Assembly (NCBI GenBank): GCA_963813025.1
Contig: CAWEXO010000008.1
Coordinates: 128,001 to 192,000 of the forward strand
DNA: 64,000 nt
Origin: an uncultured Verrucomicrobiae bacterium
GTDB lineage: Bacteria > Verrucomicrobiota > Verrucomicrobiia > Chthoniobacterales > JAFAMB01
Direction of reading: 5' to 3'
Part shown: positions 43,114 to 59,490 of the stretch, one piece after another
Layout: each line of letters begins with the position of its first letter
Numbering within the stretch: position 1 is the stretch's first letter
Notes under the pieces: generated by a model
The model's input: only the letters and a program-made list of their open reading frames with translations
Databases searched by the model: none
Told to the model about the DNA's origin: nothing
Program-made: the position numbers and the translations under genes

Positions 43114-43187
43114 GCACCCGTAGCTCAATTGGATAGAGTATATGACTTCGGATCATAGGGTTGCAGGTTCGAGCCCTGCCGGGTGCA
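43114..43187 (+). tRNA. tRNA-Arg (anticodon UCG)
   Basis: GCACCCG/CGGGTGC acceptor stem, TATGA-CT-TCG-GA-TCATA anticodon arm, GGTTCGAGCC T-loop. Confidence 0.95.
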
Positions 43188-43251
43188 AATCGGCTACCAG
43201 AGCCAATCTCCAAGCAATTCGCGATTCCGAAACATCCGCTTCCAAAATGTC

Positions 43252-43283
43252 TGTTGGCCGTTTGTTGGCCGTTTTTCGTGTTC
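43252..43283 (+). repeat. 32-bp direct repeat, left copy (putative integrase arm site)
   Basis: TGTTGGCCGTTTGTTGGCCGTTTTTCGTGTTC, identical to 59294-59325. Confidence 0.8.
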
Positions 43284-43357
43284 GTCAAAAAGCGGATTTT
43301 CACGGCTTTTGAAGATTGACCTTCGGATGGCGCTCGGATCACCATGACGGTTTCCCC

Positions 43358-43570
43358 ATGAAAACCGCTCCTCCGAACTTCAAACCTTCGGGAACCGTCC
43401 TTTACACCTACCGGTGCCCTGAGCACATCGGATTTGATCTCCAAGTCGTTGCGCATATCGCACAAAGCCGCGCAGTGATCGCGCGCAAAGCAAAGACTGC
43501 TAAACAGTCTCTCGGCGCATTTATCTGGGACGAAATGGCGGCGCTAGTCGCTATGGCCAAGCTGGAATAG
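43358..43570 (+). CDS. Small hypothetical protein
   Basis: First of three closely packed + strand ORFs. Confidence 0.45.
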   Translation: MKTAPPNFKPSGTVLYTYRCPEHIGFDLQVVAHIAQSRAVIARKAKTAKQSLGAFIWDEMAALVAMAKLE

Positions 43571-43576
43571 GCATTT

Positions 43577-43759
43577 ATGAAACAGCGAAAACGTAAGCTC
43601 AAAGCCTCCGAGGTCCAGCATATCGTGATTCCGAGCACTGAACTGGTCAAGGCAATCGAGCAGCGCGGACATTGGATGAAAGCCGAGGATGTGCGTCCTG
43701 TAGTAATGAAGGCGCCGGCAAGATTTGGGAACAAGAGGTCCCACTTTACAAAACACTGA
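43577..43759 (+). CDS. Small basic hypothetical protein
   Basis: Spaced 6 nt and 1 nt from its neighbours. Confidence 0.45.
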   Translation: MKQRKRKLKASEVQHIVIPSTELVKAIEQRGHWMKAEDVRPVVMKAPARFGNKRSHFTKH

Positions 43760-43760
43760 T

Positions 43761-44069
43761 ATGAAAAATTCACACTTCGAGGAACACGAAATAGAGGCTC
43801 AAGAACCTACTGGACACAGTTGCCCTGTTTGCGAAACCCCCATTTACCGGGTGCGCGCCGAGGGCAAAAACTGGATCAGCTGCGAATGTATGGCCGAAGG
43901 AGACTTTGTTGGCAAGGGTGTGTTGGTTGACGATACCGGCTTTCATAACTCCCTCAGTGAGATCTGGGGTCAAGAAGTCCGCTACATGATGGAGACTCGG
44001 AATGAAAAATTTCCGAAGTCTTCGCTCCCCGGACCGGTTGAGGGGCTTGATCTTTCGGAAGAAGAATAA
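43761..44069 (+). CDS. Hypothetical zinc-ribbon protein
   Basis: CPVC...CEC. Confidence 0.5.
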   Translation: MKNSHFEEHEIEAQEPTGHSCPVCETPIYRVRAEGKNWISCECMAEGDFVGKGVLVDDTGFHNSLSEIWGQEVRYMMETRNEKFPKSSLPGPVEGLDLSEEE

Positions 44070-44597
44070 CAGACAACTTCTCTTCCACCGGATCTTTACA
44101 GCGAATCCTGTTTTTCTCCGGCCGGCTCGAAATAGCGGGTCAACACAATACGGGAAACGAAGTATCCGGGGTTGCAGCCCAGCCGTTGACACTCCGCTCT
44201 GATTAATGCAGCTGTCCCACGCGGAATCTGCCAGCCGCAGCATTCGGTATCGGAGCGGGGACGGCCGGGGGGACGAAGGGACTTGGCGATGCTCGATCTC
44301 GTGCCCTCCACCGTAGCAATTTATCCGGGTTTTTGCTAGGACCTTGAACCAGGAGTTTTGTCTGGGGGAAGACGATTTCGTAGTGCTGCCACCTGACCAT
44401 GAGCCAAAACTGCCATTTGACCGTTGGTGCGAAGTCCTGGCCGGCTTGTTGGCAATCGCGATTGCCTGTGTGGATATCTGGAAGATCGGACCGACAGGTG
44501 GTCTTTCCCTTCCTTTGGATGAAATCTTGCTGCTCACCGGAATTGCCTTGGTGGCCGGGATTAACAATCTGTTTGGCCCAAAACCCTAAAGGCTAAC

Positions 44598-44798
44598 ATG
44601 CCAACAAACGCCAAAACCTCTCGGGTAGGACGCCCCCGGCTGGGTGATGAACGCATCGATGTGACTCTGCCGCGATCGGTTGCTAATCAGTTGCGCACCT
44701 TCGAGAATCTAACCGGCAAGTACCGGACCAGGATCGCGGCCAATATCATCACGAACGTCTTGGCCGATCCGGAAGCCACGCAACGCTTCCTCCACTAG
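44598..44798 (+). CDS. Small ribbon-helix-helix-like DNA-binding protein
   Basis: GRPRLG..RIDVTLP..VANQL pattern. Confidence 0.55.
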   Translation: MPTNAKTSRVGRPRLGDERIDVTLPRSVANQLRTFENLTGKYRTRIAANIITNVLADPEATQRFLH

Positions 44799-45512
44799 GA
44801 GCTTGAACACCTCCCGATTGAGCGCATTGCTTCGCGTTATGCCCATAATCTCACCAATCGTTTACGATCTCCCTCGTCGCGCTGGAACTCGGGGTGGACC
44901 AAGCTCGGCAAGAGCGCACCGGAGGATTGCTCAGATCCCTCGTCCTTCCAGGAGCACCGGCACCAGCCACCACCGAATTGAGCTCGTCCATCAAGTCGGC
45001 GAACTAGATGCCGCCGCTCGGAGGATTTGATCGCGCTCGAGCGTCTTAGCCCGATCATTCCTCCTCCTCTACCTCCTCACGCTGGAGCCGCTGGAGCGCT
45101 CCGCAGCCACGAATTGTTTGCGGATGGTGCAGCGCAGCGCTTGGCAGGAACGGGATGATCTCTTAACTAGCACCTCTGATGAATGAGGACGAAGCGCCGA
45201 CCCATGAAACCCACGCCAGAGATGGTCCAAATCCTTATCGAGCGGATAAGAGAAGTTTTAGCCGATCCGGATACGATGGCAGCCCACCCAAAGCGCCTCG
45301 ACTTTATTGCCGAGAGCGAACCGACCTACAAAATCGCAAATCGTTCATGTTGAACGGCTTAAATTCTAGGATCGACCGCTATGCTACCCGCATTGATTCT
45401 GTATTTGCCCTTATCCGAAATGTCGTTTCACTGACCGGAATATGGCGTCTACCGCTGAATCTGATATGATGAGAACGAGAACGTCACCGGAGCCGAGTCA
45501 CCGCAATCAATT

Positions 45513-46322
45513 ATGAATGAAATTCTTGTTGCAATAGGCGGTGGGTTGGCCACCGGTGGGACTCTCGAAAAGTTTCTCGGACCGACTGCGGAGTATCTTG
45601 GCCAGGGTATGTTGACCTTCGCAAAGAGGCGGGGGGAAAATATTCGCCGTATCTTCAGCAAGGCAATAGAAAAACTTGGCAATAGAATCGAATCGCCCGG
45701 ATTTGTCCCTCCGCGAGTTCTTGCCGGGGTTGTCAACGAGGGTTCGTATCGCGAAGACGAACTTGAGGCAGAGTATTTTGGCGGCGTTCTTGCCTCAGCT
45801 CGCACAACAATATCTCGGGACGATCGTGCTGCTTCGATTGTAGCGCTCATAAACCGGTTAACTACTTATCAGTTAAGATCCCATTACATTTTGTATCGGA
45901 CGATCAAGCGTCTCTTTAATGGCACCAATATCGCAATCTCTTCCCCAGCAGAGCGTCTATCTTTAGAAGTCATTATTCCTTTCTCCATATATTCGACTGC
46001 AATGGATTTTTCCGAAGAGGAGGACAATCGGTCACTCTTGCATCATGCTATGAGCGGGCTCGATCACGAAGATCTCATTGAAAAACAAGGACTTTGGAAC
46101 GGCGGGCTGGTCGCCTATTCGATTCAGCCCGAATCGGAAGATATCTCAGTGACGCCCTCTGTTCGAGGAGTCGAGTTGTTTCTCGCCGCCTACGGTTTCG
46201 CACACTTCGGAGTAGATTATTTCCTTTCGTCAAAATGCGAAATTGCCGATTTTGCAGGAATATCTATTCCGGAGGGAGCGCGCAAAGGTCGACCCTCAAC
46301 CCAGACTAGCGGGTTCGAGTGA
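45513..46322 (+). CDS. Cargo protein resembling Abi-alpha/DUF4393 family
   Basis: LGPTAEYLG, PPRVLAGVVNEGSY.EDEL..EYFGGVLASA; AT-richer than host genes. Confidence 0.55.
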   Translation: MNEILVAIGGGLATGGTLEKFLGPTAEYLGQGMLTFAKRRGENIRRIFSKAIEKLGNRIESPGFVPPRVLAGVVNEGSYREDELEAEYFGGVLASARTTISRDDRAASIVALINRLTTYQLRSHYILYRTIKRLFNGTNIAISSPAERLSLEVIIPFSIYSTAMDFSEEEDNRSLLHHAMSGLDHEDLIEKQGLWNGGLVAYSIQPESEDISVTPSVRGVELFLAAYGFAHFGVDYFLSSKCEIADFAGISIPEGARKGRPSTQTSGFE

Positions 46323-46331: not shown

Positions 46332-46353
46332 GGCCACAATTTGTGGCCTTTTT
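46332..46353 (+). terminator. Intrinsic terminator (a similar hairpin follows at ~46371-46392)
   Basis: GGCCACA-ATT-TGTGGCC followed by TTTTT, right after the stop codon. Confidence 0.6.
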
Positions 46354-46573
46354 CAGTTGCCTGATTTTGGGCCACGATTCGTGGACATTTTTCCGCTCCT
46401 CTCGTCTATGTTAGACACCTAACATAGTTCTCGTTCACCTAATAACAAAGTTTGGTTTACATGCGGAAAATCACGCGCTCGACCAGTTCCCGAGTCGAAA
46501 TAGAATGTAAAAAGAAGCAGTTCTGGGTCACTGCTTCCTATTGAAATCGCTCAAATCGGACCGGGGTTTCCAT

Positions 46574-48568
46574 CTACCACACAACCGGCCTATTCTGAAC
46601 GCCGTACCGGTGCGGTCTTGAGGTGCTCTCGCCCTCCACACCGATCGGACGCCCAGCCGGCTGGTAAACGATATCTCGCCGCATCGGCTGGGCTCCCCAC
46701 GCCGGTCTATTGGCGGCGGATTGCTCCTGCTGCGAGAGCGGCGTGTGTTCTCCGACGCCCCTCTCATCCAGGTTGATCCGCAGGCTCTCGAGCGACGAGA
46801 GACACATCACCAAACAATCAAGCGCCTCGTTCCGGGCCCGGGTCTGCACCCATTGAAAGCTTTTGACTCCGTTGCGATACCGCGGCTGCCGGGACTCGCT
46901 GGCCAGTTGGGCAAAGAACTCGCTGTCAAAGCCGCTAGCAACGCCGCCCTCGGGTTCTTTCGGAACATGGACAAAGCCACGGCCCGGAGCTTCCACCTTG
47001 AGGAGGCCAGCTACCAAATCTTTGACCTTGTTCACGTCAGATTTGACGATTCGAGCCCGTTCGTTGGTGTCATCCCGGATCGTCCAGATTGCTCCTTGCG
47101 GCAGGCTGGACAAGCCCTGGAAGGCAATCAAGCGCGGGTAACGACGCTTGGTTTCCCGGCAGACGATTCCGTGGAAGTGGCCACCGCAATCCTGCAAAGC
47201 CCGTCGGACCTGCATCGGAGTGCCATCTTGCCTTTTCCAAGTCCGGTTTAAGACTCTCTCCTCGAGCTCGGCATACATGTGTGCCGTGTCCAGGTCGGGT
47301 CGCCCGAGAATCTGACCGTATTCGAGCAACCACGTCTCCCGACCGGGACCGAAGGCGCAGATCAGGTAGGCAAAGTAGGTGTCCTGGGTATCGATCCCGG
47401 CCACGATGAGCTTCGTTTGGTCGGGAAGTTCGCAGTGATAAACCTCACGCCGACCGACCAGATCGTCTTCGACAATCGCTTCCTTGGAAGTGACGAAAGG
47501 CTCGCCCAGCCTCGTGCCTAAGACCGCCCGGAGCGCACTGTGATCGCCGCTCTTGGCCTGGTGGCTGGCTTGCCGCCACTCGGCATGGACCACACGCCAG
47601 TCGATCAATGGCGATGGCCAGCAGGCCAGGTGGAACCCGCGACGGAACGGGTGGGAGGAGTGCGCCCGCCAGATCCCTTCGTTTCCCAACCATTCCAGCT
47701 GGCTGTATTCCCGCTCACAGGTGACGCACCGGCAAGCGCCAGTCTCAAAGTTCATCTCGGCCAGGGCGAGAATCTGGTAATGGCCAGCCGGACACCGGGA
47801 ATAGTAGTGTTCCTGGGTCGAGTCCTCGTAGAGCGCGCTGATCCGGCACGATTCCAATTCGACCGGGCTTGAGCTGTAGATCACTTTTGTGCTCCCCCGG
47901 AAAGTACTTGTTCTGACCTTGCCCAGAGATACGGCATCGCCTTCCGGTGACCGTCCTTTGGCCATCAAGGGCAGCCTTGAAAGCTCTTCAAAGATCAGGT
48001 AGCGGATCGGCCTCATGGAAAGACCGACGGCGCTCAAGCCGGCCACGATCGATACCTGGCAGCCTGGCCCCAAACTTTTGCGAAACATTGAGCTTTCCGG
48101 CCCGACTTCTTCCTTCTCCCATCTGCCGTTCAAATTCAGACTGTCGCGGAGCATCGGGTCAAGCCGGTCCAGGCTCATCGAGCGACATGCCTGCAGAGTC
48201 GGACAGACCAGAAGCGTCGGCGCCGGATCGACCGATGCCCAGTAAAGAATCGGGTTGAGCGTGGCAAGCTCGCTCTTTCCCACCTGGCTGGCGGCCGAGA
48301 TCACGACCTCCCGCATCGAAGGATTGGCGATTGCTCGAGAGATTTCCCGGCCATAGGGAAACCGATCAAAGGACCAGCGGCCAGGCTCAGCACTTGATTC
48401 CGGGGAAAGGCGCCGGTGTTTCTCCAGCCAGGGGACGATATCCAGCCGCTGAGTCGGTCGGGCCATCTGGCTCAGCTCTCGCAAAACTTCTCGGGTGACG
48501 GCGCTCGGTGTCTCCGAGCCGTTCAGGTGTTTCTTACCGCGCTTTTCTTTTCTCTTGAGAGTGACCAT
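46574..48568 (-). CDS. Terminase large subunit, lambda gpA family
   Basis: SPESSAEPGRW, SQVGKSE (Walker A), SSSP, zinc ribbon, AGIDTQD, DCGGH, RNEALDC. Confidence 0.9.
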   Translation of the reverse strand: MVTLKRKEKRGKKHLNGSETPSAVTREVLRELSQMARPTQRLDIVPWLEKHRRLSPESSAEPGRWSFDRFPYGREISRAIANPSMREVVISAASQVGKSELATLNPILYWASVDPAPTLLVCPTLQACRSMSLDRLDPMLRDSLNLNGRWEKEEVGPESSMFRKSLGPGCQVSIVAGLSAVGLSMRPIRYLIFEELSRLPLMAKGRSPEGDAVSLGKVRTSTFRGSTKVIYSSSPVELESCRISALYEDSTQEHYYSRCPAGHYQILALAEMNFETGACRCVTCEREYSQLEWLGNEGIWRAHSSHPFRRGFHLACWPSPLIDWRVVHAEWRQASHQAKSGDHSALRAVLGTRLGEPFVTSKEAIVEDDLVGRREVYHCELPDQTKLIVAGIDTQDTYFAYLICAFGPGRETWLLEYGQILGRPDLDTAHMYAELEERVLNRTWKRQDGTPMQVRRALQDCGGHFHGIVCRETKRRYPRLIAFQGLSSLPQGAIWTIRDDTNERARIVKSDVNKVKDLVAGLLKVEAPGRGFVHVPKEPEGGVASGFDSEFFAQLASESRQPRYRNGVKSFQWVQTRARNEALDCLVMCLSSLESLRINLDERGVGEHTPLSQQEQSAANRPAWGAQPMRRDIVYQPAGRPIGVEGESTSRPHRYGVQNRPVVW

Positions 48569-49079
48569 TAGTACTCGCCCGAGCCAGGATATCGCCCAGC
48601 GAGTCTAACGCATCGGCGCTCTCCGCCTCAAGGATGGCCAGCTGGCTTGCGCGTTCCGTCGTATGGCTTAAGCGCTCAATCACTCGGCTCGAAAAGCTGC
48701 TCATCTTCTGCTGGTAGCTCCGGACCGCTCGGCCAAAGGTCGACAGAAACTCTTCCCGCGGGACCAGGTCGCCACGACTCCGCTCCATGGCCAGCTCAGC
48801 CTTAGCTCGGATCGCCGCCTGAGTCTTGGATTTCTCGGAAAGAAAATCGGTCTGCGCTTTTTCACGTTCCGATCGCTGCAGCTGGGAAAATGAGCGCACA
48901 CAATCAACCAGCGGATAAAGGTACGCCTTCTTGTTTCGCGGATCCTGAATTCGCGAAAACACGCCGCTCCGGGCCAGCCGGGTTGTCACCGTATCAGAGA
49001 GCCCGAGCAGCCGGCTCAGCTCCGCGGCCGGAACGTGGAGCGATTCATCCAACGTCAAAATCTGGACGGAATCTGCCAT
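48534..49079 (-). CDS. Terminase small subunit (Nu1-like)
   Basis: N-terminal wHTH (AAELSRLLGLS...YPLVDCV), coiled coil AKAELAMERSRGDLVP; overlaps terL. Confidence 0.75.
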   Translation of the reverse strand: MADSVQILTLDESLHVPAAELSRLLGLSDTVTTRLARSGVFSRIQDPRNKKAYLYPLVDCVRSFSQLQRSEREKAQTDFLSEKSKTQAAIRAKAELAMERSRGDLVPREEFLSTFGRAVRSYQQKMSSFSSRVIERLSHTTERASQLAILEAESADALDSLGDILARASTNGHSQEKRKAR

Positions 49080-49144
49080 AACAGTTTCGAAGCCCGTTGT
49101 ATCCGCCAATTTAAAAAAGCTCGAGGACTCGCTCGATTTAAAGG

Positions 49145-49186
49145 ATCGCTCGCACCCGTCGAGCGATTAAAGTTCCGACAGGACCC
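49145..49186 (-). other. Putative cos site (cosQ plus cosN-like dyad)
   Basis: GGGTCCT, 20 nt, ACGGG, the latter inside the dyad ATCGCTCG-N7-CGAGCGAT; just upstream of terS. Confidence 0.65.
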
Positions 49187-49250
49187 AGTCCCGGGGATTA
49201 ATTTTTTCGGCGGGAAAGCGCTCGCCTCCCCCGAGTAGATGATTGGATGA

Positions 49251-49991
49251 TCAAGCGAAGTCATACCGTTTGCTTCGCTCGGTTGCGAACCTCTCACGCA
49301 AAGCCAGAACGCGTTTTACTTCCTGCGCCAGTTGTTCTGATCTCAGCTCCGGTGAAGAAGGACGACCTCGAATGAAACTTGAAAAGATCGAGTTACTTTG
49401 GACGAACTCGTTGAGCGCAATGACATCACGAGCACTTTCCGCGACTGGCAGGAGAGCGAAAGCCTGGGGTTCAATTCTTTTGGCCAACATCTCAAGATGA
49501 GCTGCCACACGTTCGGCCCGGAGACCTTGAGCCTGCTGCTCCAGGGAGACCCGAGCATAATCGATTCGGTCGCGAAGCTGCTGCCGAGCTTCCCCTTCCT
49601 GAGATAGCAGGCGGGTATGACGGGCGGCTAGAACTTTGGTCAAAGCCTGAGCCTTTGAGACGCGGTCCACCAACTCGTCTTCCTCGCCCAGGTCATCGGC
49701 CACGAGCTTGACTTCTTGGGCTTTGGCTGCTTCGAGCCGGCACGCGAGCTTGGCCAATTCCTGGCGGAGCTTGTCCGCTCTCGCTTGAACCACAGTCATT
49801 GCTTTCCAAGGATCCGGCTCGGTGGAATCAGGTCCAGGCGGTTTAGGGGAAGGGATTGGCGGCACCACGGGTAGAGCTGCCCACTGAGCAACAGCGTAAT
49901 CCGAGAGAGGCTCCGGCTTCGTACTGACCGGGAGTGCCGGAGTTGATGGAACAATGGGTGGACGGACGGGAGATTCAGTCATCGGGTTCAT
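49251..49991 (-). CDS. Hypothetical protein with Pro-rich N-terminus and coiled coil
   Basis: 246-aa ORF; ATGA overlap with the upstream gene. Confidence 0.7.
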   Translation of the reverse strand: MNPMTESPVRPPIVPSTPALPVSTKPEPLSDYAVAQWAALPVVPPIPSPKPPGPDSTEPDPWKAMTVVQARADKLRQELAKLACRLEAAKAQEVKLVADDLGEEDELVDRVSKAQALTKVLAARHTRLLSQEGEARQQLRDRIDYARVSLEQQAQGLRAERVAAHLEMLAKRIEPQAFALLPVAESARDVIALNEFVQSNSIFSSFIRGRPSSPELRSEQLAQEVKRVLALRERFATERSKRYDFA

Positions 49992-50236
49992 TTGGTTTGA
50001 GCTGCTGCCTTTTTGAGAGAAGTAATAATCGGGGAAGGCTGCTTCGAGTTTCCGGCCCGGGTTGATCTCAGGTACTCGGCTTCGCTTTTGGGAAGCGTAG
50101 CTTTGCTTTTTACTGGGGGGCGGAGGCTAGCGGCGAGAAGCCGCCCGGCGTGATCGGCTGGGGAACGACCGAGCAACTGGGCGCCTTCGCGAAGCCGCTG
50201 GTAAAGCTCGGGGGCGAGTTGGATTTCTAATTTCAT
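49988..50236 (-). CDS. Small RHH/CopG-like protein
   Basis: MKLEIQLAPELYQRLREGAQLLGRS; ATGA-coupled on both sides. Confidence 0.6.
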   Translation of the reverse strand: MKLEIQLAPELYQRLREGAQLLGRSPADHAGRLLAASLRPPVKSKATLPKSEAEYLRSTRAGNSKQPSPIITSLKKAAAQTK

Positions 50237-50448
50237 GATGCTGCAATGCTTTTGGATCGGTGGGTTGACTGCGAAAGCCGAAGAGTTAAAGGCGCACCTG
50301 GCTGCTCGGAATTGAGCCAGACCTGGATTGAAACTGGCTTTCCCTCGATCTGGATTGTGCCGGCATAATTGGGTTGCCAGTCGGCGGTTCGATTTGCTTT
50401 GACGGGCAAGCGGACAGTGAGCGGGCACGCTTGGGTAAGTTCTTTCAT
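50233..50448 (-). CDS. Small beta-rich protein (DUF736/phage SSB-like pattern)
   Basis: QPNYAGTIQIEG..VSIQVW; ATGA-coupled. Confidence 0.55.
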   Translation of the reverse strand: MKELTQACPLTVRLPVKANRTADWQPNYAGTIQIEGKPVSIQVWLNSEQPGAPLTLRLSQSTHRSKSIAAS

Positions 50449-50909: not shown

Positions 50910-51368
50910 AGATATTTTGTGGGTTTGAAGAACGTTTGGGACGGTCTGTGGAAATTGGTACGGGTTCGGGTTTGGGCAGTCATGACTTTATGATCAGTGC
51001 TCGTCCGCCTCCATAATGCGTTACGAATGGCCTCTGACACATGCTTTGTGCGCAGAGCTCTTCTTCGCGCTCGATGTTTGGCTGGACATAGCCACTAGCC
51101 GCTATGGTCACCGGCTTAGTAAGACCTCTTAAGATAAGGTCCTCAGCTGGCAGTATGTTATGGACACTGAACCGCGAAACCTTTCGGCGGTGCCAAGGCA
51201 ACAGCAGAAAGGCCAGAAGCTGGCCAAGGAAGAGACGACGTTTTACTTGCTCTGTTTTCATTGGGTAGAAACGAGTCTTGAAGTCACCCGACCATTCTTG
51301 GAAAGCCAGCAGCAGCCACCTCAGTGCTGTAGTCCGTTCTGCCTCGGTCCAGCAAGTCCGGTAAGGAA

Positions 51369-52916
51369 TCAGGTTGCCTGATCGCCCACCGAGGCATTTT
51401 TGCTAATGTCAGAAGTCTCGATCGCCCCTTCATAAAATTTCAAGACTCTTTGAATGTAATTCCGAGCTCCTTTCGGAGTTCCTACGTGCTCTAAAGGCCC
51501 AGCGAGCAAACGCGGTCTCCACTCGTCATCAAAAAGTTGGAGAAGTCTTTCTTGTTTCAATTTGCTGTAGATTGGTAGAAACATTTCCATCAATGTTCGC
51601 TTCGGGGCGATTGGCAGATCAAGGTGCGCCAGAAGGTAACCAACAAATGCAGACGTCATGGTATCCCCCGGCCATTCGCTGCTCAAGGCGTAAAGGCACG
51701 GCTTCGGCCAGGAGTTAGCGTTCGCGACATCAATCTCGTGCTGCTGGGATACAAAATGGTAGCCAGCCACGCATACAGCGGTAACAGTTTGAAAAAGGTA
51801 GAGGTACTCTCGAGTGGGGACGACTTCCTTTATCCGCTGAGCAATTGCCATGTCGCTTCTATAGCCTTGTTCAAATGCAAAAATCCCTTGGAATATCGGA
51901 ACAACTTGAGGATGCCGCGCTGTGGCTTCGAATAATATTTCGAGGGCTTCATCGAGCGCATTCGTGTTGAGTTTTGTTTTCACTTCTACAATAGCGCGCA
52001 CCGAATCCCGCGGAACGACGACCACCTCATTTTCTCTGAACAATGGTGCATAGTTGATGGCGTCCCAAACAATGATATCGAGCTGGCGTGCGCAATCCTC
52101 GATAAACCCAGTGCTCACCCGAAACTTTCCGGGAACAACCTTACGCAGAAATCCACGCAACAACTCTTCGCGAAAGCTTCCTGCGGTCCCAGAATGGCGA
52201 ATTAGAAAATCGACTTGCCTGCTTTGGGCAAGAAGCTGGTCTGAAAATCTCGAGAGGTAGTCTATTCTATCGAAAAATCCATGGACGAGCGGAGCCAATC
52301 CATACCAAATCTTATCTCCACTGACGTGTACACTTCCTGAGCCCATAGAGTCCATCATGCGCAGCGTGTCTTCGATGAGGTCTTTCTCGAGCTCTGGGTT
52401 GCCGCGGACGGTTTGAATGAGTTCCGGCAAGAGACGTCGCCGTCCCGTGGAGTCGCGTAAAATGAGCAGAACGGTTTCCTGTATTTTAAGCCACGGTGCC
52501 GGATCAACGGCGATTTTCGACGAACCACTTCTCGCGTTGCATAAAACGTGCTTCCCGATTGCCCGGTGATACTCGCGCAATGGCGAGACTATCCACTGGT
52601 GTCCAAGAATCACAGGAGCTTGGTGAATCCATAGCTCTCCTTCTTTTGAAACTATTAAACCGGTACGAGTGGTTCCCCAATCGGAATCCGGATCGTAAAC
52701 AAACTCTCTATCGGAGAAAAATGTTTCGTCATGGGGAAGTCTTGAAATCAAGCGTTCCTGATCTGTCATTGAAAGACGAATAGTAGCACCGTCATTGCAG
52801 AAACGCTTTCTGGCGATCACATACAAGTGTTCTGGGGGTGTGGTTGGTAAGACAGATACAAACGAGTGAACTGACTGAATAGGTCTTTCATGCTGATGGT
52901 GGTCGAATGTGACCAT
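51369..52916 (-). CDS. DUF6602-like (PD-(D/E)xK nuclease) domain protein
   Basis: HSGTAGSFREELLRGFL..VSTGFI..QLDIIVWD..AIVEVKT; AT-richer than host genes. Confidence 0.75.
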   Translation of the reverse strand: MVTFDHHQHERPIQSVHSFVSVLPTTPPEHLYVIARKRFCNDGATIRLSMTDQERLISRLPHDETFFSDREFVYDPDSDWGTTRTGLIVSKEGELWIHQAPVILGHQWIVSPLREYHRAIGKHVLCNARSGSSKIAVDPAPWLKIQETVLLILRDSTGRRRLLPELIQTVRGNPELEKDLIEDTLRMMDSMGSGSVHVSGDKIWYGLAPLVHGFFDRIDYLSRFSDQLLAQSRQVDFLIRHSGTAGSFREELLRGFLRKVVPGKFRVSTGFIEDCARQLDIIVWDAINYAPLFRENEVVVVPRDSVRAIVEVKTKLNTNALDEALEILFEATARHPQVVPIFQGIFAFEQGYRSDMAIAQRIKEVVPTREYLYLFQTVTAVCVAGYHFVSQQHEIDVANANSWPKPCLYALSSEWPGDTMTSAFVGYLLAHLDLPIAPKRTLMEMFLPIYSKLKQERLLQLFDDEWRPRLLAGPLEHVGTPKGARNYIQRVLKFYEGAIETSDISKNASVGDQAT

Positions 52917-53192: not shown

Positions 53193-53400
53193 ATGTTCCA
53201 CAAGAATGTTCCACAAAGAACGCGGTTAGACAAAGAAGAGAAGGAAAGAAGAGATCCTTCCCACTAAAGCTTCTCCACTTTAGTAAATAGTAATAGAAGA
53301 GAAGAATAAGAAGAAGAGAAGAATAAGAAAGAAACAAGGAACGGGGTACGTCTTCCCGAAGCTGGCGGGAAGGTACCTGCACGAAGTTGGCGGGAAGGTA
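53193..53400. other. Putative replication origin (iterons plus purine-rich tract)
   Basis: ATGTTCCACAA x2; long A/G tract; CGAAG(C/T)TGGCGGGAAGGTA at 53357-53375 and 53382-53400. Confidence 0.5.
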
Positions 53401-53709
53401 TCACTCCCAGGGCAGTTTCCAATTCAGGATTATTTTTGGATTTTTGCCATTTGTCCGTTCCCACGTAATGGCTCCGTATTTTTTCAACACCTGCAACGCT
53501 TTTTGTTTTTGATTCTTTGAGATTCTGTAGGAACGCAGGCTTTCTGAGGTGAGAGTGATGGGATTTCTATGTTTCCAGTCCAAGTAACACGTTTCATAGA
53601 GCACCAAGAGGACAGTCAAGGCGGGCATGTAGCCACTCGCAATGATTGTAAGCAGGACCGATTTCGGAAGGGTCAAGCGCTCCAACTTTCGATATTTCGA
53701 GGAACTCAT
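53401..53709 (-). CDS. Small winged-helix protein
   Basis: ISKNQKQKALQVLKKYGAITWER..GKNP; ATGA-coupled to the polA-like gene. Confidence 0.7.
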   Translation of the reverse strand: MSSSKYRKLERLTLPKSVLLTIIASGYMPALTVLLVLYETCYLDWKHRNPITLTSESLRSYRISKNQKQKALQVLKKYGAITWERTNGKNPKIILNWKLPWE

Positions 53710-55418
53710 AATCTCCGCATGATTTCGTCCCACATGGGTTTGCCCTTCTTTTTCATGTAGCGATCCGGATAGCGGACGATGGTCGGCTCTATTCGCAGTT
53801 TATAGCCGTCCAGAACCATGGCGGAGGCTTTTTCCATGCAGGCCTGCAGTGCAGCTACAACCGTCTCAATCTCGGCGGCTGGCGCTACCACGGCCATGGC
53901 GTCATGCATCAAACCGCAGACGGGAAGCCCGGCTTCGGTCGCGAAAATTGCCGCCAGCCGCAGCATGTCGCCAGCGTTGCCCTGGCTGTGATAATTACCG
54001 GCAGCCCGGGCATTGCAGCTGGCGTCGGTGATGCGTTTACGCCAGCCGAAGGTGGTAAATTGAAAGGTGTGAATGAAGGCATGATTCTTGACGTCCTCCA
54101 GCCACTCCCAGTAGCGCGGGAAAATCTCCCGGTGCAGGCGCAACAGACGCCTGGCCACCGTTTGTGGCTGTCCCAATTGGCCGGCGAGGGTTTGGTCGTG
54201 AATCTCGTATTGAGTGCCGAGGATGCAGGGCTTATAACGCTCGCGCAGCTCCTCGTGAGTCTCCTTGGTTGCGCCGGGCGGAGCATCTCCGACCTCCATG
54301 GCAAACCACAGGTAGATATCGGGACTTTCGTAAGCCCGGATCATGTTGGGATCGCCGCAGAGCACTGCGGCAATGCCAAACTCCTGGGCCACCCAGTCCA
54401 GGACAGCGAAGGTTTCGCCCGGCGCCGGTTTAACTAAGCCGCGCAGCCACGAGGGAGCGCCGAGAATGGATTGGGCAGGCGAGGGCATGTTACGGCCCGT
54501 GATTGTCCAGAATGGGTTCATGTACGCGCGATTGCAGCCATCCGAACCGACAGGAAAATCTAAAAGTCGCGTTTTGGAGAGAATGCCTCGCAGGTAGCGC
54601 AACTTCAGAAGCTGGGGATAAACTCGAGCCCGTTCTTCAAAAGCCTCGTCATCCAGGCGAAGTGTGCCGCTTTTAAGAACCGGCCATTCAATACCTTCTC
54701 GCGTCAGGTACTCAACAAATTTGTTCGTGTTAAACGAAGCGCCTTCATAAACTCCGTAGTCTCGATCGACTTCGGCAATCAGCTCGTGTTTAATCCGTGA
54801 CATCTCTTCCCGGAGACGATCGCGCAGCGGTTCATCAAAAGGTACGCCGACCCGCTCAATCCAAGCCAGGCTGTACATGTAGCGTCCGCGCAGAGTGGCT
54901 CGGGGCAGGTCCAACAGAGGCAACATCTTTCTAAAAAGCTCCGCAGTTTCATCCACGTCACTTTCGCAATAATCCAGAATTTCCTGGCGTTCTTCCGAGC
55001 TCCAAGGTCCGCCACGCAAGACCAGATCTCGCTTCGCGGCCTTTTCTTCTTTGGTGATCGCGACAATGCCGAAGTCCACTAGAGCCCGTAACAGGGAAGT
55101 TGGCGTGGGCTTCTTCGTCTGGCCGTTTATGAGCCAGCGATATTCGCTATAGAGATCCAGAATGCACTGCGGTTTGGCCCAGCCAAGCGCCAGGTGACAG
55201 GAAGCTTCGGCGCTTGTCTGGTATGATACAAAGAGGGAACCTGGCCCTATATCGTAGGGTGGACGGTCCTCAAATTCCGTGTACCAAAGTTTGATTTTCC
55301 GGTTCGAGCGCAGTTCGCGCGCGACCAAACAGATCGGCTGCACATTACCGTTGCCTTGCGGAATAAACTCAAAGTCAGCAATGGTAATGTGCCGGAACCG
55401 ATCGAGCAGGAAGGACAC
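53706..55418 (-). CDS. Family A DNA polymerase with 3'-5' exonuclease domain (no 5' nuclease)
   Basis: ExoI DFEF, ExoIII YCESD, TITGR, motif A LDWVAQE, motif B RERYK..ILGTQY, motif C MHDA. Confidence 0.88.
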   Translation of the reverse strand: MSFLLDRFRHITIADFEFIPQGNGNVQPICLVARELRSNRKIKLWYTEFEDRPPYDIGPGSLFVSYQTSAEASCHLALGWAKPQCILDLYSEYRWLINGQTKKPTPTSLLRALVDFGIVAITKEEKAAKRDLVLRGGPWSSEERQEILDYCESDVDETAELFRKMLPLLDLPRATLRGRYMYSLAWIERVGVPFDEPLRDRLREEMSRIKHELIAEVDRDYGVYEGASFNTNKFVEYLTREGIEWPVLKSGTLRLDDEAFEERARVYPQLLKLRYLRGILSKTRLLDFPVGSDGCNRAYMNPFWTITGRNMPSPAQSILGAPSWLRGLVKPAPGETFAVLDWVAQEFGIAAVLCGDPNMIRAYESPDIYLWFAMEVGDAPPGATKETHEELRERYKPCILGTQYEIHDQTLAGQLGQPQTVARRLLRLHREIFPRYWEWLEDVKNHAFIHTFQFTTFGWRKRITDASCNARAAGNYHSQGNAGDMLRLAAIFATEAGLPVCGLMHDAMAVVAPAAEIETVVAALQACMEKASAMVLDGYKLRIEPTIVRYPDRYMKKKGKPMWDEIMRRL

Positions 55419-55425: not shown

Positions 55426-56127
55426 CTACTCCACGCCAGCCAGGTTCTGCATGATCGGATGTTCCATGGAATCGATCACCCGATTCTTGAAGGCTAGCCG
55501 CAGAATTTCGCCAAAAGATACCTCCGGCCAAATCGGTTCGGGCATCTTTCCGTTAGGCCGGACATAGGCATAACAGCCGCCTTCGGCATAGACACGCAAC
55601 CATTCGGTTTTGCACATATCGGCAATCTCTCTGGCGGTTCTCCAATAATCATTGTCCCTGGCCCCATCCAGGGGGAGGCGTATTTTCCAGACGAAAGGCT
55701 TTTCCGCGTGGCGCTCCAAAGCCAGACAAAGAATGACACTTTTCATGAGCACCTTGTATTCCTCTGCCAGCTCCTGCAAAAAGGGAGGAGAAATCAGGTA
55801 GGTATCCCTTTCCATCCCTGCCTCATCGGTGTCTTCAAAAATGTAAGTCAGGTACTGATAGTCTTCCCCAGGATGCACCCGACAAAAGGAGCCCGGCCGT
55901 GGGACTTTTCTAATGCTGTAGCTGGTGACTAACTTCTTAGCCGGGGCTTTCAGCGTTGCCTGGCTAACCCGCATGTTGAGCGGATCAAATGGATCAAATG
56001 CGGGTTTTGGTTCGTTACGTGAAGCTTCAACCAGCTCGGATTGAGCCGTCGAACTTACTTCGGATATGTGGTTTTGTGTGCCATCCGAGCTGATTGTATC
56101 AAAACTAACTGTCTCGCGTTTTTTCAT
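55426..56127 (-). CDS. Hypothetical protein upstream of PolA (possible ssDNA-binding/accessory factor)
   Basis: 233-aa ORF ending 7 nt before the polA-like gene; FCRVHP, EPIWP..SFGEILRLAF..RVIDS.EHP. Confidence 0.75.
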   Translation of the reverse strand: MKKRETVSFDTISSDGTQNHISEVSSTAQSELVEASRNEPKPAFDPFDPLNMRVSQATLKAPAKKLVTSYSIRKVPRPGSFCRVHPGEDYQYLTYIFEDTDEAGMERDTYLISPPFLQELAEEYKVLMKSVILCLALERHAEKPFVWKIRLPLDGARDNDYWRTAREIADMCKTEWLRVYAEGGCYAYVRPNGKMPEPIWPEVSFGEILRLAFKNRVIDSMEHPIMQNLAGVE

Positions 56128-56158: not shown

Positions 56159-56470
56159 TTAGGTTTGAAATTCTAGCTGTCGCGCGTCCCGTTTAGCCTT
56201 GCGCGGCCTCCCGGGCAGCTCGTAAAGGCTAAATACCTCGGGTAGGAGACAAGAGCAGGTCACCGCGGTGGGTATCCACCACCGGGGGTTCTCGTTCGTA
56301 ATTCGGGAGTCTGCTCGCGCCGCAAATAATACGACGAGCGGCTGCTGGCACTTATCGCAGCTAAGTTCCCGGTGCTTGTTCTCTCTCCAGCAGGGAAGAG
56401 AATTAAGCAGCGCAAACTGGGTGCCGCGGACTTCTAAGAATTCTGGTCTTTTGACAGTAACACGTTTCAT
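56159..56470 (-). CDS. Hypothetical Cys-rich protein
   Basis: CDKC...CSC; co-oriented with the island operon. Confidence 0.5.
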   Translation of the reverse strand: MKRVTVKRPEFLEVRGTQFALLNSLPCWRENKHRELSCDKCQQPLVVLFAARADSRITNENPRWWIPTAVTCSCLLPEVFSLYELPGRPRKAKRDARQLEFQT

Positions 56471-56508
56471 AATTATTGGGTTTCTTCCCCCTCTGGGAAC
56501 CCTTCCTC

Positions 56509-56850
56509 TCAAGGGCGCTCACTATCATCTTTTCTGAGACTGTTTAGGATAGGCCCTGTCGTGCGATTAAACCGGGTACCATATGCTCGCTTGCCCGCCC
56601 ATCGCCTTCTGGTGAGTTCCTCGACCTTTGATTTTAGTTCCGCCAAGTCGTCGCTGAACATGCTCCAGACAGGAACGGCCAATTCCGGGAACCTTTTCGG
56701 AACGCCGATAAAGATGCACTGGAAGCGTTCTCCCGATTCACCTGCACTTTCTTTTGTGTAGAACTCGAACAATCCATCCCGCGTTTCGACGGCGGGTTCT
56801 GGCAGTAGCGGACGATAGCCGTCCAAAATAGGGGCGTTAGTAAATCTCAT
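56509..56850 (-). CDS. Hypothetical protein
   Basis: ATG with GGAGAG RBS; co-oriented with the island operon. Confidence 0.5.
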   Translation of the reverse strand: MRFTNAPILDGYRPLLPEPAVETRDGLFEFYTKESAGESGERFQCIFIGVPKRFPELAVPVWSMFSDDLAELKSKVEELTRRRWAGKRAYGTRFNRTTGPILNSLRKDDSERP

Positions 56851-57172
56851 AGGCTCTCTCCGTTCTTTACTTGCCACAATTCTTGATGGGGTTGTGGCCC
56901 TCTTGTTTGGCGGACTTCTCAATGACCGGCGGCCGCCATTAAGCCGGCTGCCGGCAGCGTGCCGGCGAAAATGGGTCAAGGTGTTTTGGGGAGGCTCTGC
57001 GTTTTGCCGTCCGTCATCTGAAGAGAACGTCGGCTCATTGGAACGGCAGAAGACAAAGGCCCCGACGTCGGGACCTTCTATTTACAAACAACAGTTCTGC
57101 AATCGTCCGAAGACAGTGGTTTATTGGGAATAAGAGTGCGTAGTTCTGCTAGTACCACCCAAGATGCGAATT

Positions 57173-57376
57173 TTAGACCGCCTCCGCATACCGGCGATTC
57201 ACGCGCGCCCGGCGCCACGCCAGCACCTCACTCAAACGATAGCGAACAAGGCCGCTGCCAATACTGTGTGCTGGGCATCCCTCGCGCCGATATCGTCGGA
57301 TTGTCGCGGGGTCCACGTCGATCACCCGAGCCACATTGGGCCCGGACATGAGCTGCTCTAAGGGTTGTTTCTTCAT
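57173..57376 (-). CDS. Excisionase/AlpA-like HTH protein
   Basis: VARVIDVDPATIRRYRREGCP....VRYRLSEVLAW. Confidence 0.8.
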   Translation of the reverse strand: MKKQPLEQLMSGPNVARVIDVDPATIRRYRREGCPAHSIGSGLVRYRLSEVLAWRRARVNRRYAEAV

Positions 57377-57473
57377 AGATAGGCGATGGATACTCCATCG
57401 TTGTCCGCTTTTGATCAGCGGAACGCAAGAAAAAAGTTATAGCGATGATATATTTATGCACTATTATCCGCAC

Positions 57474-58031
57474 ATGCCCGCTTCTGTCCGACTACACAAT
57501 CTTGTAAGGCTACGAGAACACCTGAAACTGACCCAAGGCCAACTGGCTGAGCTTGTTCGCTACGCGCCAATCACGATTCGCTCAGTCGAAACCGGCAAAC
57601 TGGGGCTTTCCCGCGAACTCGCTGAGCGGGTTGCTGCGGTAACGGCTTGCGACGCCGCGTGGTTGCTTAATAACGATTTGAAAGCGCCGCTTAGCTTCAA
57701 CCGTCCACAACCGACGGCTAAGAGTGACTGGCAAAAGGTTGCCAAGGGGGATCTGCTCAACGTGACTGCGCGCGCTTTTGAAATTGCAAACCAAATTGAA
57801 GACGAAGCAAGTGCTCGGCTCCTGTCACATTGCGTAGTGCAGTTTCACCAGCATTTAGAGCGCACCGTTGGCTTGTTTGCCGGCCGCCGATCTCAGCCGA
57901 TAAAGCCGACCGAATATCTAATATCCCAACTTGAACAACTGTCTATTTCGACCCCGCGGCAGCGGCTGCAGCAGGAAAAGGATCCACCGAAGCGCCCGAA
58001 AGCACGCTCCCGAACCCGCTCGTCACTTTGA
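57474..58031 (+). CDS. XRE/Cro-CI family repressor
   Basis: LREHLKLTQGQLAELV...TIRSVETG...AAWLL; divergent from xis. Confidence 0.82.
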   Translation: MPASVRLHNLVRLREHLKLTQGQLAELVRYAPITIRSVETGKLGLSRELAERVAAVTACDAAWLLNNDLKAPLSFNRPQPTAKSDWQKVAKGDLLNVTARAFEIANQIEDEASARLLSHCVVQFHQHLERTVGLFAGRRSQPIKPTEYLISQLEQLSISTPRQRLQQEKDPPKRPKARSRTRSSL

Positions 58032-59340
58032 CGCTCCGGTCGGCATAGTACTCGCTTGTGGTTCGGATATCGCTGTGACGCAGCGCGGAGCTCGCCGCGT
58101 GCAATCCATGCCGGTCGGCAATCGCGCTCCCGAAAAGCTTCCGCAGCGCGTGGAAGGGTTTGTTTCCCTGGATACCCTTGGCTCGGAGCCAGCCCAGCAG
58201 CGATCCCCACACCTCTTGCGCCCGGTAACGCTGGTAACGCACATTCTTCGGTGCGCGTTTGCTCTCGATCACAAACGCCCCCCTGGCCGTCACCTTCCAG
58301 CCCCGGAACAACGCCATGATCTCGGGCTCTGCGGGCAGCACAGCCGCGCTTTCGCGGGTTTTAAGCTGGTAGTACCTGGTCGGCATGATTCGCACCGTGC
58401 TGGCGCCGAAATCGAAGCTCTGCCATTCCAAGGTGTCGGCTTCCTTGCGTCTTAACCCCAGCACCAAGGCCAAGATGAAGGCCTTCAGCTCTTCGGGTCG
58501 GTTAGTGGAAAGCTCGGTGAGGGCATCGCGGAAGAGCTGGTTTGGCTCCGTCCCGCAGCCGTAAAACTTGGTATCAGTGCGACGTTCCACGCTGACATCG
58601 TCGAAGGGAAGCACCGCTGGCAACTCAACGCCAGAGAGTTTGCTCAGCACATTGCGTTTCGAGAAGAGCGCCCGCGCCTGGCGCAAGAGCGAGTTACAGG
58701 AATTGGTGTACTGGCGCCGGCGAAGCTCATCCGTCCCAGCTCGGTCGATGAACTTCCTTTTCCAAGCCCGAACCTTGCTCGGTGTCACTTCGGCCAGCGG
58801 GACAGCGTGCACGCTGGCAAGCCATCTCTGGTTTCCGCCGGTCCGGTAATCGAAGCGAGCCTTACCCCCTTTTATCCTGGCAACCTCCGAAACGATGCGC
58901 CGGAAGCTTTTGGCGTAGCCCTCGACTGTTACCGGCGACAGCTCGGTCTGCGTGGCAACTGCGTTTAGGAATTCGCCGACAGTGCCTCCAAGCTCAGAAG
59001 TGCTTATATTATCACTACTTATTTTAGCCTTCTCCGTCTGCCGATCGCGGTACTTCTCCTTGAACTCCACCCAACCGTTGGCGACCAAAAATTGATAGCG
59101 TTCCTTGGCGAGGGCGGCAGCTTCGGCTTGATTGGCCGTCGCCAGACTCATCGTCACCCGGCGGCCGACATGCTGCAGCTTGACACAGTAGACCGGCGAC
59201 ACGTCCACCTTTCCTCCCGCCCGGAAAATCTTAGGTTTGAACACCCGTTTTGACCAGTAGCGGGTGTCATTTTTAGAAATGACAAACCTAGTTTGTTGGC
59301 CGTTTGTTGGCCGTTTTTCGTGTTCATGCATGTCCGGCAT
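57943..59340 (-). CDS. Tyrosine recombinase/integrase
   Basis: LGLRRKE (R), LKT (K), HALR, LRHSDIRTTSEYY; adjacent to the att site; start uncertain. Confidence 0.93.
   Translation of the reverse strand: MPDMHEHEKRPTNGQQTRFVISKNDTRYWSKRVFKPKIFRAGGKVDVSPVYCVKLQHVGRRVTMSLATANQAEAAALAKERYQFLVANGWVEFKEKYRDRQTEKAKISSDNISTSELGGTVGEFLNAVATQTELSPVTVEGYAKSFRRIVSEVARIKGGKARFDYRTGGNQRWLASVHAVPLAEVTPSKVRAWKRKFIDRAGTDELRRRQYTNSCNSLLRQARALFSKRNVLSKLSGVELPAVLPFDDVSVERRTDTKFYGCGTEPNQLFRDALTELSTNRPEELKAFILALVLGLRRKEADTLEWQSFDFGASTVRIMPTRYYQLKTRESAAVLPAEPEIMALFRGWKVTARGAFVIESKRAPKNVRYQRYRAQEVWGSLLGWLRAKGIQGNKPFHALRKLFGSAIADRHGLHAASSALRHSDIRTTSEYYADRSVKVTSGFGSVLSGASVDPFPAAAAAAGSK
59294..59325 (+). repeat. 32-bp direct repeat, right copy (putative integrase arm site)
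   Basis: Identical to 43252-43283. Confidence 0.8.
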
Positions 59341-59446
59341 TGTGCGGATATTGTTTCACACGATCGCCTGGAGATCAAGTGCTGAAGCGGATTTGTAACC
59401 AGCTAAGAGCGGATTCTGCCGAACATTCAAAAACCCCGAAGGATAA

Positions 59447-59490
59447 GACTTCGGATCATAGGGTTGCAGGTTCGAGCCCTGCCGGGTGCA
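59447..59490 (+). repeat. att site: duplicated 3' 44 bp of tRNA-Arg
   Basis: GACTTCGGATCATAGGG...GCCGGGTGCA, identical to 43144-43187. Confidence 0.95.

Follow-up and report, generated by a model that had tools for sequence, protein, structure and literature searches.

Phage satellites are currently sorted by what they steal from their helpers: phage-inducible chromosomal islands (PICIs) as well as P4 take the packaging motor and the capsids, and capsid-forming PICIs (cf-PICIs) take tails only. According to the excerpts consulted of the published reports, PICIs carry terS and typically no other structural genes (PMC10085698); cf-PICIs, with 9-11 core components, are distinguished by terL, capsid and head-tail genes (PMC10085698) and encode capsid, protease, portal, connectors and both terminase subunits (PMC10690885); and P4 is packaged by the terminase of P2 (PMC10690885). 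As excerpted likewise, VEIMEs (integrative mobile elements encapsidated in virions) are without major capsid genes, some having terS and a DNA polymerase (PMC9618062), 8% of VEIMEs encode terminases (PMC12822802, figure legend), and in PICI-like tycheposons either terS or a capsid gene is present (bioRxiv 10.1101/2020.12.28.424599). In the present study, we analysed a 64,000-nucleotide window of the genome of an uncultured soil Verrucomicrobiae bacterium (contig CAWEXO010000008.1, positions 128,001 to 192,000), in which an island of 16.3 kb is bounded by two identical segments (window positions 43144-43187 and 59447-59490). With a probability of roughly 0.6, we read this island as an integrative, self-replicating, helper-dependent element, that is, a phage satellite in the broad sense, with its own cos-type terminase and packaging site and with no capsid, portal or tail genes; its satellite behaviour is inferred from comparative genomics only. 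In full-text literature searches we met with no description of a satellite family whose defining content is terS and terL with neither capsid nor portal, although supplementary tables, which lay outside the search, could list such elements.

Several observations carry this reading. First, the integrated state is directly observed. The island lies in the 3' end of a tRNA-Arg(TCG) gene (43114-43187, plus strand, ARAGORN), the last 44 nt of which (43144-43187) form the attL core, and the repeat finder and an exact k-mer walk gave a perfect 44-bp copy of this end as the attR core (59447-59490, plus strand; the cores are at 171144-171187 and 187447-187490 in genome coordinates), in agreement with the perfect repeats claimed by an earlier first-pass annotation of this DNA. 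These 44 bp are the perfect part of a 51-nt direct repeat of 96% identity reported by the repeat finder (43137-43187 and 59440-59490). A tyrosine integrase of 465 aa is encoded at one end (57943-59340, minus strand; PF00589 6.6e-13, phrog_1 2.2e-19), and just inside the att cores stand two 97% identical copies of a 35-nt repeat with tandem TGTTGGCCGTT (43249-43283 and 59291-59325, both plus strand, repeat finder), which are possible arm sites for the integrase and, in addition, were scored as terminator-like hairpins. Second, both terminase subunits are present, as the first-pass annotation had proposed. The gpA-type TerL of 664 aa (46574-48568, minus strand; PF05876 1e-42, PF20454 9.2e-55, phrog_15 3.9e-133) matches the ATPase and nuclease domains at full length and ends in the C-terminal tail RYGVQNRPVVW, and the TerS of 191 aa (48534-49109, minus strand; phrog_57 5.5e-13, phrog_141 9.8e-8) overlaps terL by 35 nt. 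Third, when the 21 candidate open reading frames (ORFs) of the island were scanned against Pfam and PHROGs (E<=0.01), no portal, capsid, protease, tail or lysis family was matched, so that the claim of an interval between the att sites free of such ORFs was upheld. A hidden Markov model (HMM) of E-type major capsid proteins had no match in this island, and the same Pfam and PHROGs scans gave no head-tail adaptor or connector, several ORFs below 160 aa being without family. Fourth, terL is followed only by a spacer and a convergent gene, again as first described: of the convergent terminator-like hairpins at 46332-46539, that on the minus strand (46539-46512) closes the terL operon and that on the plus strand (46332-46348) closes the gene o269.

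That several island ORFs have no detectable family is what a complete minimal virus, with structural proteins too divergent to recognise, would also present. We regard such a virus as very improbable. Only three ORFs above 200 aa are without family assignment (o246, o269 and o233), and none is long enough for a portal, portal proteins being typically longer than 400 aa. Moreover, o246 is predicted as an all-helical hairpin, o269 is Abi_alpha-like and unique to this copy, and o233 travels with the polymerase PolA in islands that have no terminase. Structure prediction, which had been suggested as a check for hidden head proteins, was informative in part: the AlphaFold2 model of o246 (mean confidence, pLDDT, 66, with 47 residues >=90 and helices at residues 61-98 and 104-172) is not an HK97 fold, and the model of o233 (pLDDT 39) is unusable.

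Compared with classical PICIs (SaPIs and EcCICFT073-type elements, as excerpted from PMC10085698), the island shares the format of an integrase-bounded element of ~10-18 kb that has a replication module of its own and, here as a candidate, a switch of repressor/Xis-AlpA type, together with accessory defence-like genes and no structural or lysis genes; the PICI late operon ends in terS. Unlike these PICIs, which in the same excerpts rely on the TerL of the helper, it has a full terL, its replication genes are a family-A polymerase and a 233-aa partner and not a primase-replicase, no recognised capsid-morphogenesis gene was found in it, and its host phylum is Verrucomicrobiota. Of the features of the PICI model, the integrase at one end is present, the regulation module (an AlpA, MerR or Stl homologue) is represented by a sub-threshold HTH_17 match, a phrog_66 match (2.3e-8) and a cI-like helix-turn-helix (HTH) gene (by Pfam and PHROGs, not by SatelliteFinder profiles), and the feature of terS without other packaging or structural genes fails on the full gpA-type TerL. 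Like cf-PICIs (excerpts of PMC10085698 and PMC10690885), the island combines terS and terL in a small, integrative, satellite-sized element; unlike them, as far as these excerpts describe them, it has no detected major capsid protein, protease, portal or head-tail adaptor/connector, and it would need whole helper proheads where cf-PICIs borrow only tails. With P4, whose helper is P2, it has in common an apparently cos-type system, a length near one third of that of typical phage genomes, replication genes of its own and the want of a capsid protein gene. Unlike P4, which uses the helper terminase in the excerpts of PMC10690885, it brings its own TerS and TerL, and no primase was found in the island, P4-like elements having an alpha primase-helicase. 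VEIMEs and PICI-like tycheposons, as excerpted from PMC9618062 and bioRxiv 10.1101/2020.12.28.424599, are likewise small tRNA-integrating elements with modular integration and replication, helper-packaged and without major capsid genes, some having terS and a DNA polymerase; in these excerpts, however, they are reported with small-subunit terminases or a capsid gene and not with a terS-terL pair, and VEIMEs are defined by their recovery as concatemers from virions. Lastly, two TerL Pfam domains and a Nu1-like TerS directly upstream and overlapping are shared with lambda-like cos prophages, in which, unlike in the island operon that ends at terL, gpA is followed by gpW and the portal. Thus, by gene content, the island appears to fit none of the PICI, cf-PICI and P4-like classes, each failing at least one tested defining feature, and would be a new variant among phage satellites. 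The distinct class first proposed, with a motor and a polymerase of its own, stands as to the motor and gives way as to PolA, which is not class-defining. If the reading is true, an element that has the whole motor and steals only proheads fills a gap in the series given at the outset, a new route of helper interference, competition at the portal, would be opened, and satellites would be extended to Verrucomicrobiota, a soil phylum with very few known phages. Annotation pipelines should accordingly not score terL plus terS without portal or capsid as a "defective prophage".

The same architecture was observed in related loci. A TerL protein search revealed five gpA-TerL loci in the source assembly (4.42 Mb, 16 contigs, 80% complete; G000), four of which adjoin a tRNA whose 3' end is repeated 10-18.6 kb away: the present island, or C8 (tRNA-Arg, 16.3 kb), C13 (tRNA-Tyr, 17.8 kb), C5a (tRNA-Leu, 10.0 kb) and C1 (tRNA-Met, 18.6 kb, with a frameshifted terL). 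The fifth, C5b, has no tRNA nearby. In every one of them terS-terL closes a long operon at or near the tRNA end, and in C5a there is no room for head genes downstream because the tRNA starts ~150 bp after terL. Any TerL match was obtained in 10 of the 61 relatives searched. The sister species G001 has one intact tRNA-Arg(acg) island of 17.0 kb (G001a) and a second with stops in terL (G001b), and G011, of the same family, has a tRNA-Ser island of at least 13.9 kb with att repeats, which brings the total to eight portal-less TerS/TerL loci in three genomes, with both att repeats found in six of the eight. No portal was found in any of the eight by Pfam (108 + 131 ORFs from island loci, limited to ORFs of at least 80 aa in G001 and G011) or by a portal HMM trained on the control loci described below, and PHROGs gave the same result on the 84 ORFs of the own-genome loci; the HMM finds 66 portal ORFs in other loci and zero in these eight. 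Full prophages with a portal after terL, which the first-pass annotation had envisaged as possible relatives, are thus not among them. The only capsid gene in the eight loci is that of C5a (Phage_cap_E, PF03864 3e-30, phrog_29 2.3e-42), followed by a weak decoration-like ORF (phrog_49 1.8e-4). The C5a element (G000:C5:89810-99835) comprises an integrase, a repressor, an AAA_25 helicase, the 370-aa E-type major capsid gene, TerS and gpA TerL, with no portal or protease, and its own capsid gene may point to a graded series between PICI-like and cf-PICI-like strategies.

Wider searches added little to this family. Single-protein TerL scans of genome and viral contig collections gave no relatives, a TerL alignment scan of genome contigs gave no loci beyond those already found, and a metagenome TerL scan gave only short contigs or degraded terL, without usable context; in a 5.8-billion-cluster protein search, only five proteins were more than 40% identical to the TerL of the window. 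The degraded terL of the metagenome contigs L140-L145 is one and the same N-terminally truncated gene, split over three frames; its three pieces are 38-51% identical to the query TerL (43-51% in L145). It recurs on six contigs that come from several records, and is a fixed pseudogene in some uncultured organism. Two portal-less contigs from IMG/VR, L064 and L115, were considered as family relatives and rejected, one looking like a truncated remnant and the other like a rearranged phage fragment.

The relation of the island to phages was assessed with a control set of 80 IMG/VR loci with related TerL, of which 17 were too short and were left out of the portal count. Of the 63 contigs that extend for at least 2.5 kb beyond terL, 60 show a portal ORF of lambda type that starts on the same strand within 3 kb downstream of terL, one has a portal at 3.1 kb and two have none. 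A real prophage of the same order (L050; TerL 29% identical) has Nu1 and gpA, then a small ORF of the size of W, a portal of the lambda family (3.1e-78) and baseplate genes. Since gpA-type terminases otherwise precede a portal, it might be supposed that the island is a decayed prophage, the remnant of a lambda-like temperate phage in which everything downstream of terL has been deleted and the rest is being lost; the frameshifted or stop-broken terL of some members would fit this, and the E-type capsid and weak decoration-like gene of C5a could be the remnant of a lambda-type head module. We consider it unlikely, for several reasons. An identical truncation would need to have happened repeatedly, or to have been passed down, in eight loci at different tRNAs in three genomes; the att cores are perfect; terL ends at a terminator-like hairpin with conserved accessory genes next; and C5a has no room downstream. 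In addition, the genes of the islands appear, from dN/dS values (Nei-Gojobori), to be under purifying selection and maintained. Between C13 and G001, dN/dS was 0.12 for terL and 0.19 for terS; between C8 and C13, it was 0.07 for polA, 0.18 for o233 and, on very few changes, 0.87 for o110; between C8 and G001, it was 0.21 for o154, 0.10 for o66 and 0.35 for o246. Finally, the TerL tree, a quick maximum-likelihood tree with midpoint rooting, places five TerLs of this genus and three metagenomic proteins in one clade (SH-aLRT 99), apart from 64 portal-linked phage TerLs (SH-aLRT 98), with G011 alone on a long branch. TerL identity among the islands is 36-56%, except for the pair C13/G001a (89%) and for G011 (29-33%), and the island TerL lineage thus appears to be old and separate. 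Because of the eight loci in three genomes, the purifying selection and the separate TerL clade, the missing head genes are better regarded as an inherited family architecture than as simple prophage decay, a conclusion that the first-pass annotation had reached from the bounded size and intact ORFs of the island.

The reading of the island as a satellite with its own motor is extended by the region upstream of terS. The first-pass annotation had reported a cos-like site without locating it; by alignment of the regions upstream of terS in six elements, we found a conserved non-coding element at 49130-49215 (minus strand). It consists of CCCC..GGG, GGNTCYTT and then an invariant CGGGTGC (49158-49152) inside a palindrome (49166-49146), of which it forms loop and stem in this island. 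In six of six elements the CGGGTGC is on the coding strand at a distance of 31-73 nt upstream of terS, its genome-wide density being 0.081 per kb per strand, and its flanks are conserved over ~75 nt although the TerS proteins are only ~30% identical; since C13 and G001a are close kin, the independent lineages with this element are nearer four or five than six. The element is a candidate cos or packaging site, or a late promoter. In phage lambda, cos lies upstream of terS, a layout shared with the candidate here. Within the source genome, the islands are the only further places with the composite pattern, apart from a duplicate truncated by an insertion sequence (IS) on contig C6. This match was considered as a helper phage and rejected: the segment G000:C6:12100-13992 duplicates, at 95% identity, the stretch that precedes the C5b terS, cos-like element included, and is cut off by an IS 98.6% identical to an IS on contig C4.

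The C-terminal end of TerL is also conserved. The tail (R/K)YGVQN(R/K)P(V/M)xW is present in four island TerLs (C8, C13, C5a and G001a), C5b having the variant KWGAQNTPVQW. The tail was seen neither in G011 nor in those phage TerLs that were listed, and a degenerate DNA pattern of it found nothing in IMG/VR. The last ~130 nt of terL are ~80% identical between islands, compared with ~65% elsewhere in terL (blastn). The C-terminal end of lambda gpA is the part that binds the prohead, and, because of this and of the shared tail, the island TerLs may be addressed to a common helper portal. We propose the following course of events. A cI-like repressor, divergent from the Xis/AlpA-like gene, would silence the island until an infecting or induced helper derepresses it; Int and Xis would then excise the island, and the o233-PolA module would replicate the circle. 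With expression of the late operon o93-o154-RHH-o246-terS-terL (RHH, ribbon-helix-helix), TerS would bind the conserved element upstream of terS and TerL would cut there, docking, by the C-terminal tail peculiar to its lineage, on the portal of helper-made procapsids. The island DNA might be packaged in capsids that the coiled-coil o246 helps to resize, or else enter full-size heads as multimers, and would leave the cell with helper tails and lysis. As a more specific and tentative proposal, to which we give slightly less than even odds, these islands are a distinct, old class of satellites that take only empty proheads: they would have a full cos-type terminase holoenzyme and their own cos, with a TerL tail tuned to the helper portal, and would out-compete the helper there, not by capsid remodelling or a borrowed motor, while co-resident diverged members (five here) swap replication modules and carry defence cargo.

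Defence-like cargo is common in satellites, and two genes of the island are of this kind, one for a PD-(D/E)xK/NucC-like nuclease and the other for an Abi_alpha-like protein. The same genes could, however, belong to what is mainly a defence island, an integrative replicative element that uses the terminase for a role other than its own spread, such as phage interference (through competition for procapsids, through their blockage or through cleavage of phage DNA) or the preparation of linear DNA for other export. According to excerpts of PMC9618062 and PMC10085698, terminase subunits of satellites interfere with helper packaging, and the islands with o233-PolA and without terminase indicate that such elements persist without packaging genes. 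Still, we judge a role outside spread to be unlikely: interference alone needs no recognition site inside the element itself, and the cis element upstream of terS in six of six elements, the overlapping terS-terL and the conserved TerL tail are together what self-packaging needs.

The source of the proheads was sought in the assembly itself. No portal of the families PF05136, PF04860, PF05133 and PF06074 was found in the assembled 4.4 Mb, the Portal_Mu search being without positive control, and no TerL of another family (PF03354) was found in the assembly. The sole other capsid gene is of HK97 type and belongs to a small, portal-less cluster that includes a tape-measure gene (C5:317-322 kb). 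This locus (L051, G000:C5:317800-327700) comprises the capsid gene of 378 aa, two small ORFs, the tape-measure gene of 704 aa (PF20155), an endonuclease VII, an HNH protein and a 685-aa AAA_25 helicase, with no portal or terminase, and its capsid and tape-measure content resembles mycobacterial EPIP satellites, as excerpted from PMC12822802. With stray structural genes of this kind outside any full prophage (the E-type capsid of C5a as well), an assembly that is 80% complete and a TerL tail motif common to the co-resident islands, a distributed system could be imagined, in which other parts of the chromosome encode head, portal and tail genes, either within the unassembled 20% or as families that escape recognition, and several islands feed one particle factory resembling a gene transfer agent. 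We hold this to be quite improbable, since the assembled 4.4 Mb has neither a portal of the four families nor another TerL, the stray capsid genes are themselves in small island-like clusters, and the islands have their own integrases and att sites and differ between sister species, as typical mobile elements do. For the satellite reading, the helper may be a virulent phage or may lie within the missing 20% of the genome.

Several points nevertheless weigh against the satellite reading. The capsid gene of C5a makes the family not uniformly capsid-less. Decay does occur in this lineage, since terL is broken in C1, in G001b and on contigs L140-L145. No helper phage was identified in an assembly that is 80% complete, and the missing part could contain a resident helper or head locus. 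Instead of cos, the element conserved ahead of terS could be a promoter or operator. The TerL phylogeny is limited by its rapid method and rooting, and its phage set holds the best IMG/VR matches only. Lastly, small head-completion or adaptor proteins are possible among o84, o93, o96, o114, o117, o156 and o233, all without family match.

The replication genes of the island are of a different standing from the terminase genes. The integrase, the divergent repressor/Xis pair and the PolA block of the first-pass annotation were recovered by Pfam and PHROGs matches, with a reservation for Xis. The leftward early operon is opened by this Xis/AlpA-like HTH_17 protein of 67 aa (57173-57376, minus strand; PF12728 2.9e-5, phrog_66 2.3e-8), whose Pfam match of 24.7 bits is under the 27-bit cut-off. 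Divergent from it is a cI/Cro-type HTH repressor-like gene (57336-58031, plus strand; HTH_31/HTH_3, PF13560/PF01381; phrog_8/2328/3), for which, given an HTH at residues 58-110, a real start downstream of the called TTG is probable. The operon continues with the small conserved ORFs o156 and o117 (56159-56979, minus strand; 86-95% identical to the C13 copies, dN/dS 0.16 for o117) and with o233 (55426-56127, minus strand), the conserved partner of PolA, homologues of which precede PolA in four other islands, terminase-less ones included, and which is presumably a replication initiator. PolA itself is a family-A DNA polymerase of 570 aa (53706-55418, minus strand; PF00476 3.5e-19, phrog_17 9.5e-46), with a bifunctional 3'-5' exonuclease/polymerase as its best NCBIfam match (NF011540 1.7e-19). 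It is followed by the small conserved o110 (53401-53733, minus strand; 94.5% identical in C13), for which Pfam, PHROGs, PADLOC and NCBIfam scans gave no family match, so that its earlier label of winged HTH (wHTH) is not retained, and by two tandem 24-nt repeats beside an AT-rich, pyrimidine-rich stretch (53352-53400, located by the repeat finder and in the sequence), which are candidate iterons or a candidate origin. No primase or replicase family was matched among the island ORFs in Pfam, PHROGs or NCBIfam, which leaves PolA and o233 as the replication genes.

This replication block appears to be exchanged between islands. The segment 52857-56876 is 95.7% identical in nucleotides to C13, while the TerL of C13 is only 55% identical in protein (blastn, tblastn). 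The late block (o93, o154, an 82-aa ORF and o246) and the tRNA-proximal segment 44128-45028 are common to the G001 islands, which have replication genes of ResIII-helicase/DUF5906 type and no PolA. The gene order int-xis-[233aa]-polA-wHTH-terS-terL, which had been suggested for a synteny search, is therefore kept in other genomes as to the late operon and terS-terL and swapped as to the replication module. A PolA search of 401 genomes of the phylum gave matches in nine genomes at E<=1e-10, with clear orthologues in three besides G000. In distant Verrucomicrobiota (G352, G139 and G123), small integrase islands (L044-L048) have an o233-like gene directly upstream of a family-A polymerase of 570-640 aa and no terminase. 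Because sister islands use helicase/primase genes with the same late operon and o233 plus PolA occurs in terminase-less islands, the pair is, on these comparisons, a portable two-gene replication module, exchangeable and not a hallmark of the terminase-bearing family, and the earlier use of PolA as a class feature was abandoned. The C1 island (G000:C1:31311-49870), with its terL in three frames, has a Sak4/DUF669/primase-helicase replication module and an SDH/ClpP-like protease (phrog_11747 8.6e-87), and as cargo an alpha-amylase of 971 aa in fusion with a solute-binding domain.

The remaining late genes stand upstream of the conserved element on the minus strand. The first gene of the late block, o93 (50980-51261), has 87-89% identical copies in C13 and G001. 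It is followed by o154 (50445-50909), a Cys-rich protein (CxxC...CxxxxC) with 54-77% identity in the alignment and invariant cysteines, which may possibly be a zinc-finger regulator; the Cys pattern may resemble that of the Ogr/Delta zinc-finger activators. The 82-aa ORF (49988-50236) is the conserved part of a called 185-aa ORF, the tblastn match to G001 spanning residues 104-185 only, and looks ribbon-helix-helix-like by eye. The AlphaFold2 model of o246 (49251-49991) has a disordered Pro-rich N-terminus followed by the long helical hairpin. No Foldseek match was obtained for it at E<=0.001, the top PDB structural match being, at a non-significant E of 0.2-0.4, the decoration protein Psu of P4, and Atlas gave Psu at 0.88, the nearest unnamed clusters being phage-associated. 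PDB profile searches with o246 and o154 gave chance-level matches only, no sequence-level similarity to Psu, Sid or Delta was found in Pfam or in these searches, and IMG/VR yielded no relatives of o154 or o246. From the model, o246 may be a scaffold, size-determination or decoration factor, which we offer as a lead.

Between the replication and late modules, a DUF6602/PD-(D/E)xK (NucC-like) nuclease of 515 aa is inserted (51369-52916, minus strand; PF20247 1.1e-18, PADLOC PD_DExK 8.5e-26 and NucC 4.3e-13), and the segment 51277-52856 is absent from the C13 and G001 islands according to the blastn breakpoints. The second cargo gene, o269 (45513-46322, plus strand), is Abi_alpha-like, that is, related to abortive infection (Atlas 0.97), and is present in this island only, in a region of local GC ~0.49. 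It has no Pfam match and no paralogue in its own genome, and 233 of its 256 features are shared with Atlas clusters having PF14337 in 17-41% of members. Toward the tRNA lies a conserved accessory block (44128-45028, plus strand; 85% nucleotide identity to G001; dN/dS 0.10, for o66, and 0.19), comprising the hydrophobic o81 (44344-44589), o66 (44598-44798), RHH-like by eye, with homologues near terL in C13, C5b, C1, G001 and G011, and a 75-aa ORF.

The GC content is 0.544 between the att cores and 0.567 in the rest of the window. An empty attB was sought in the sister genome G001, in which tRNA-Arg(tcg) is without this island and homology ends exactly at window position 43188; a clean empty site was not obtained there because the flanks are not syntenic. 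The left flank is non-syntenic between the species because of a 458-aa gene left of the tRNA (41474-42850), which has several 74-86% identical copies in G001 and is therefore probably itself mobile or repeated. In G001, the 3' end of tRNA-Arg(tcg) is found once more as an isolated stretch of 46 nt (98% identical) at G001:C1:160197-160242, on a different contig from the tRNA gene; this copy may be the far att site of another element. Elsewhere in the window, a tRNA-SeC (tca) is encoded on the minus strand (11046-11141), and the organism therefore uses selenocysteine.

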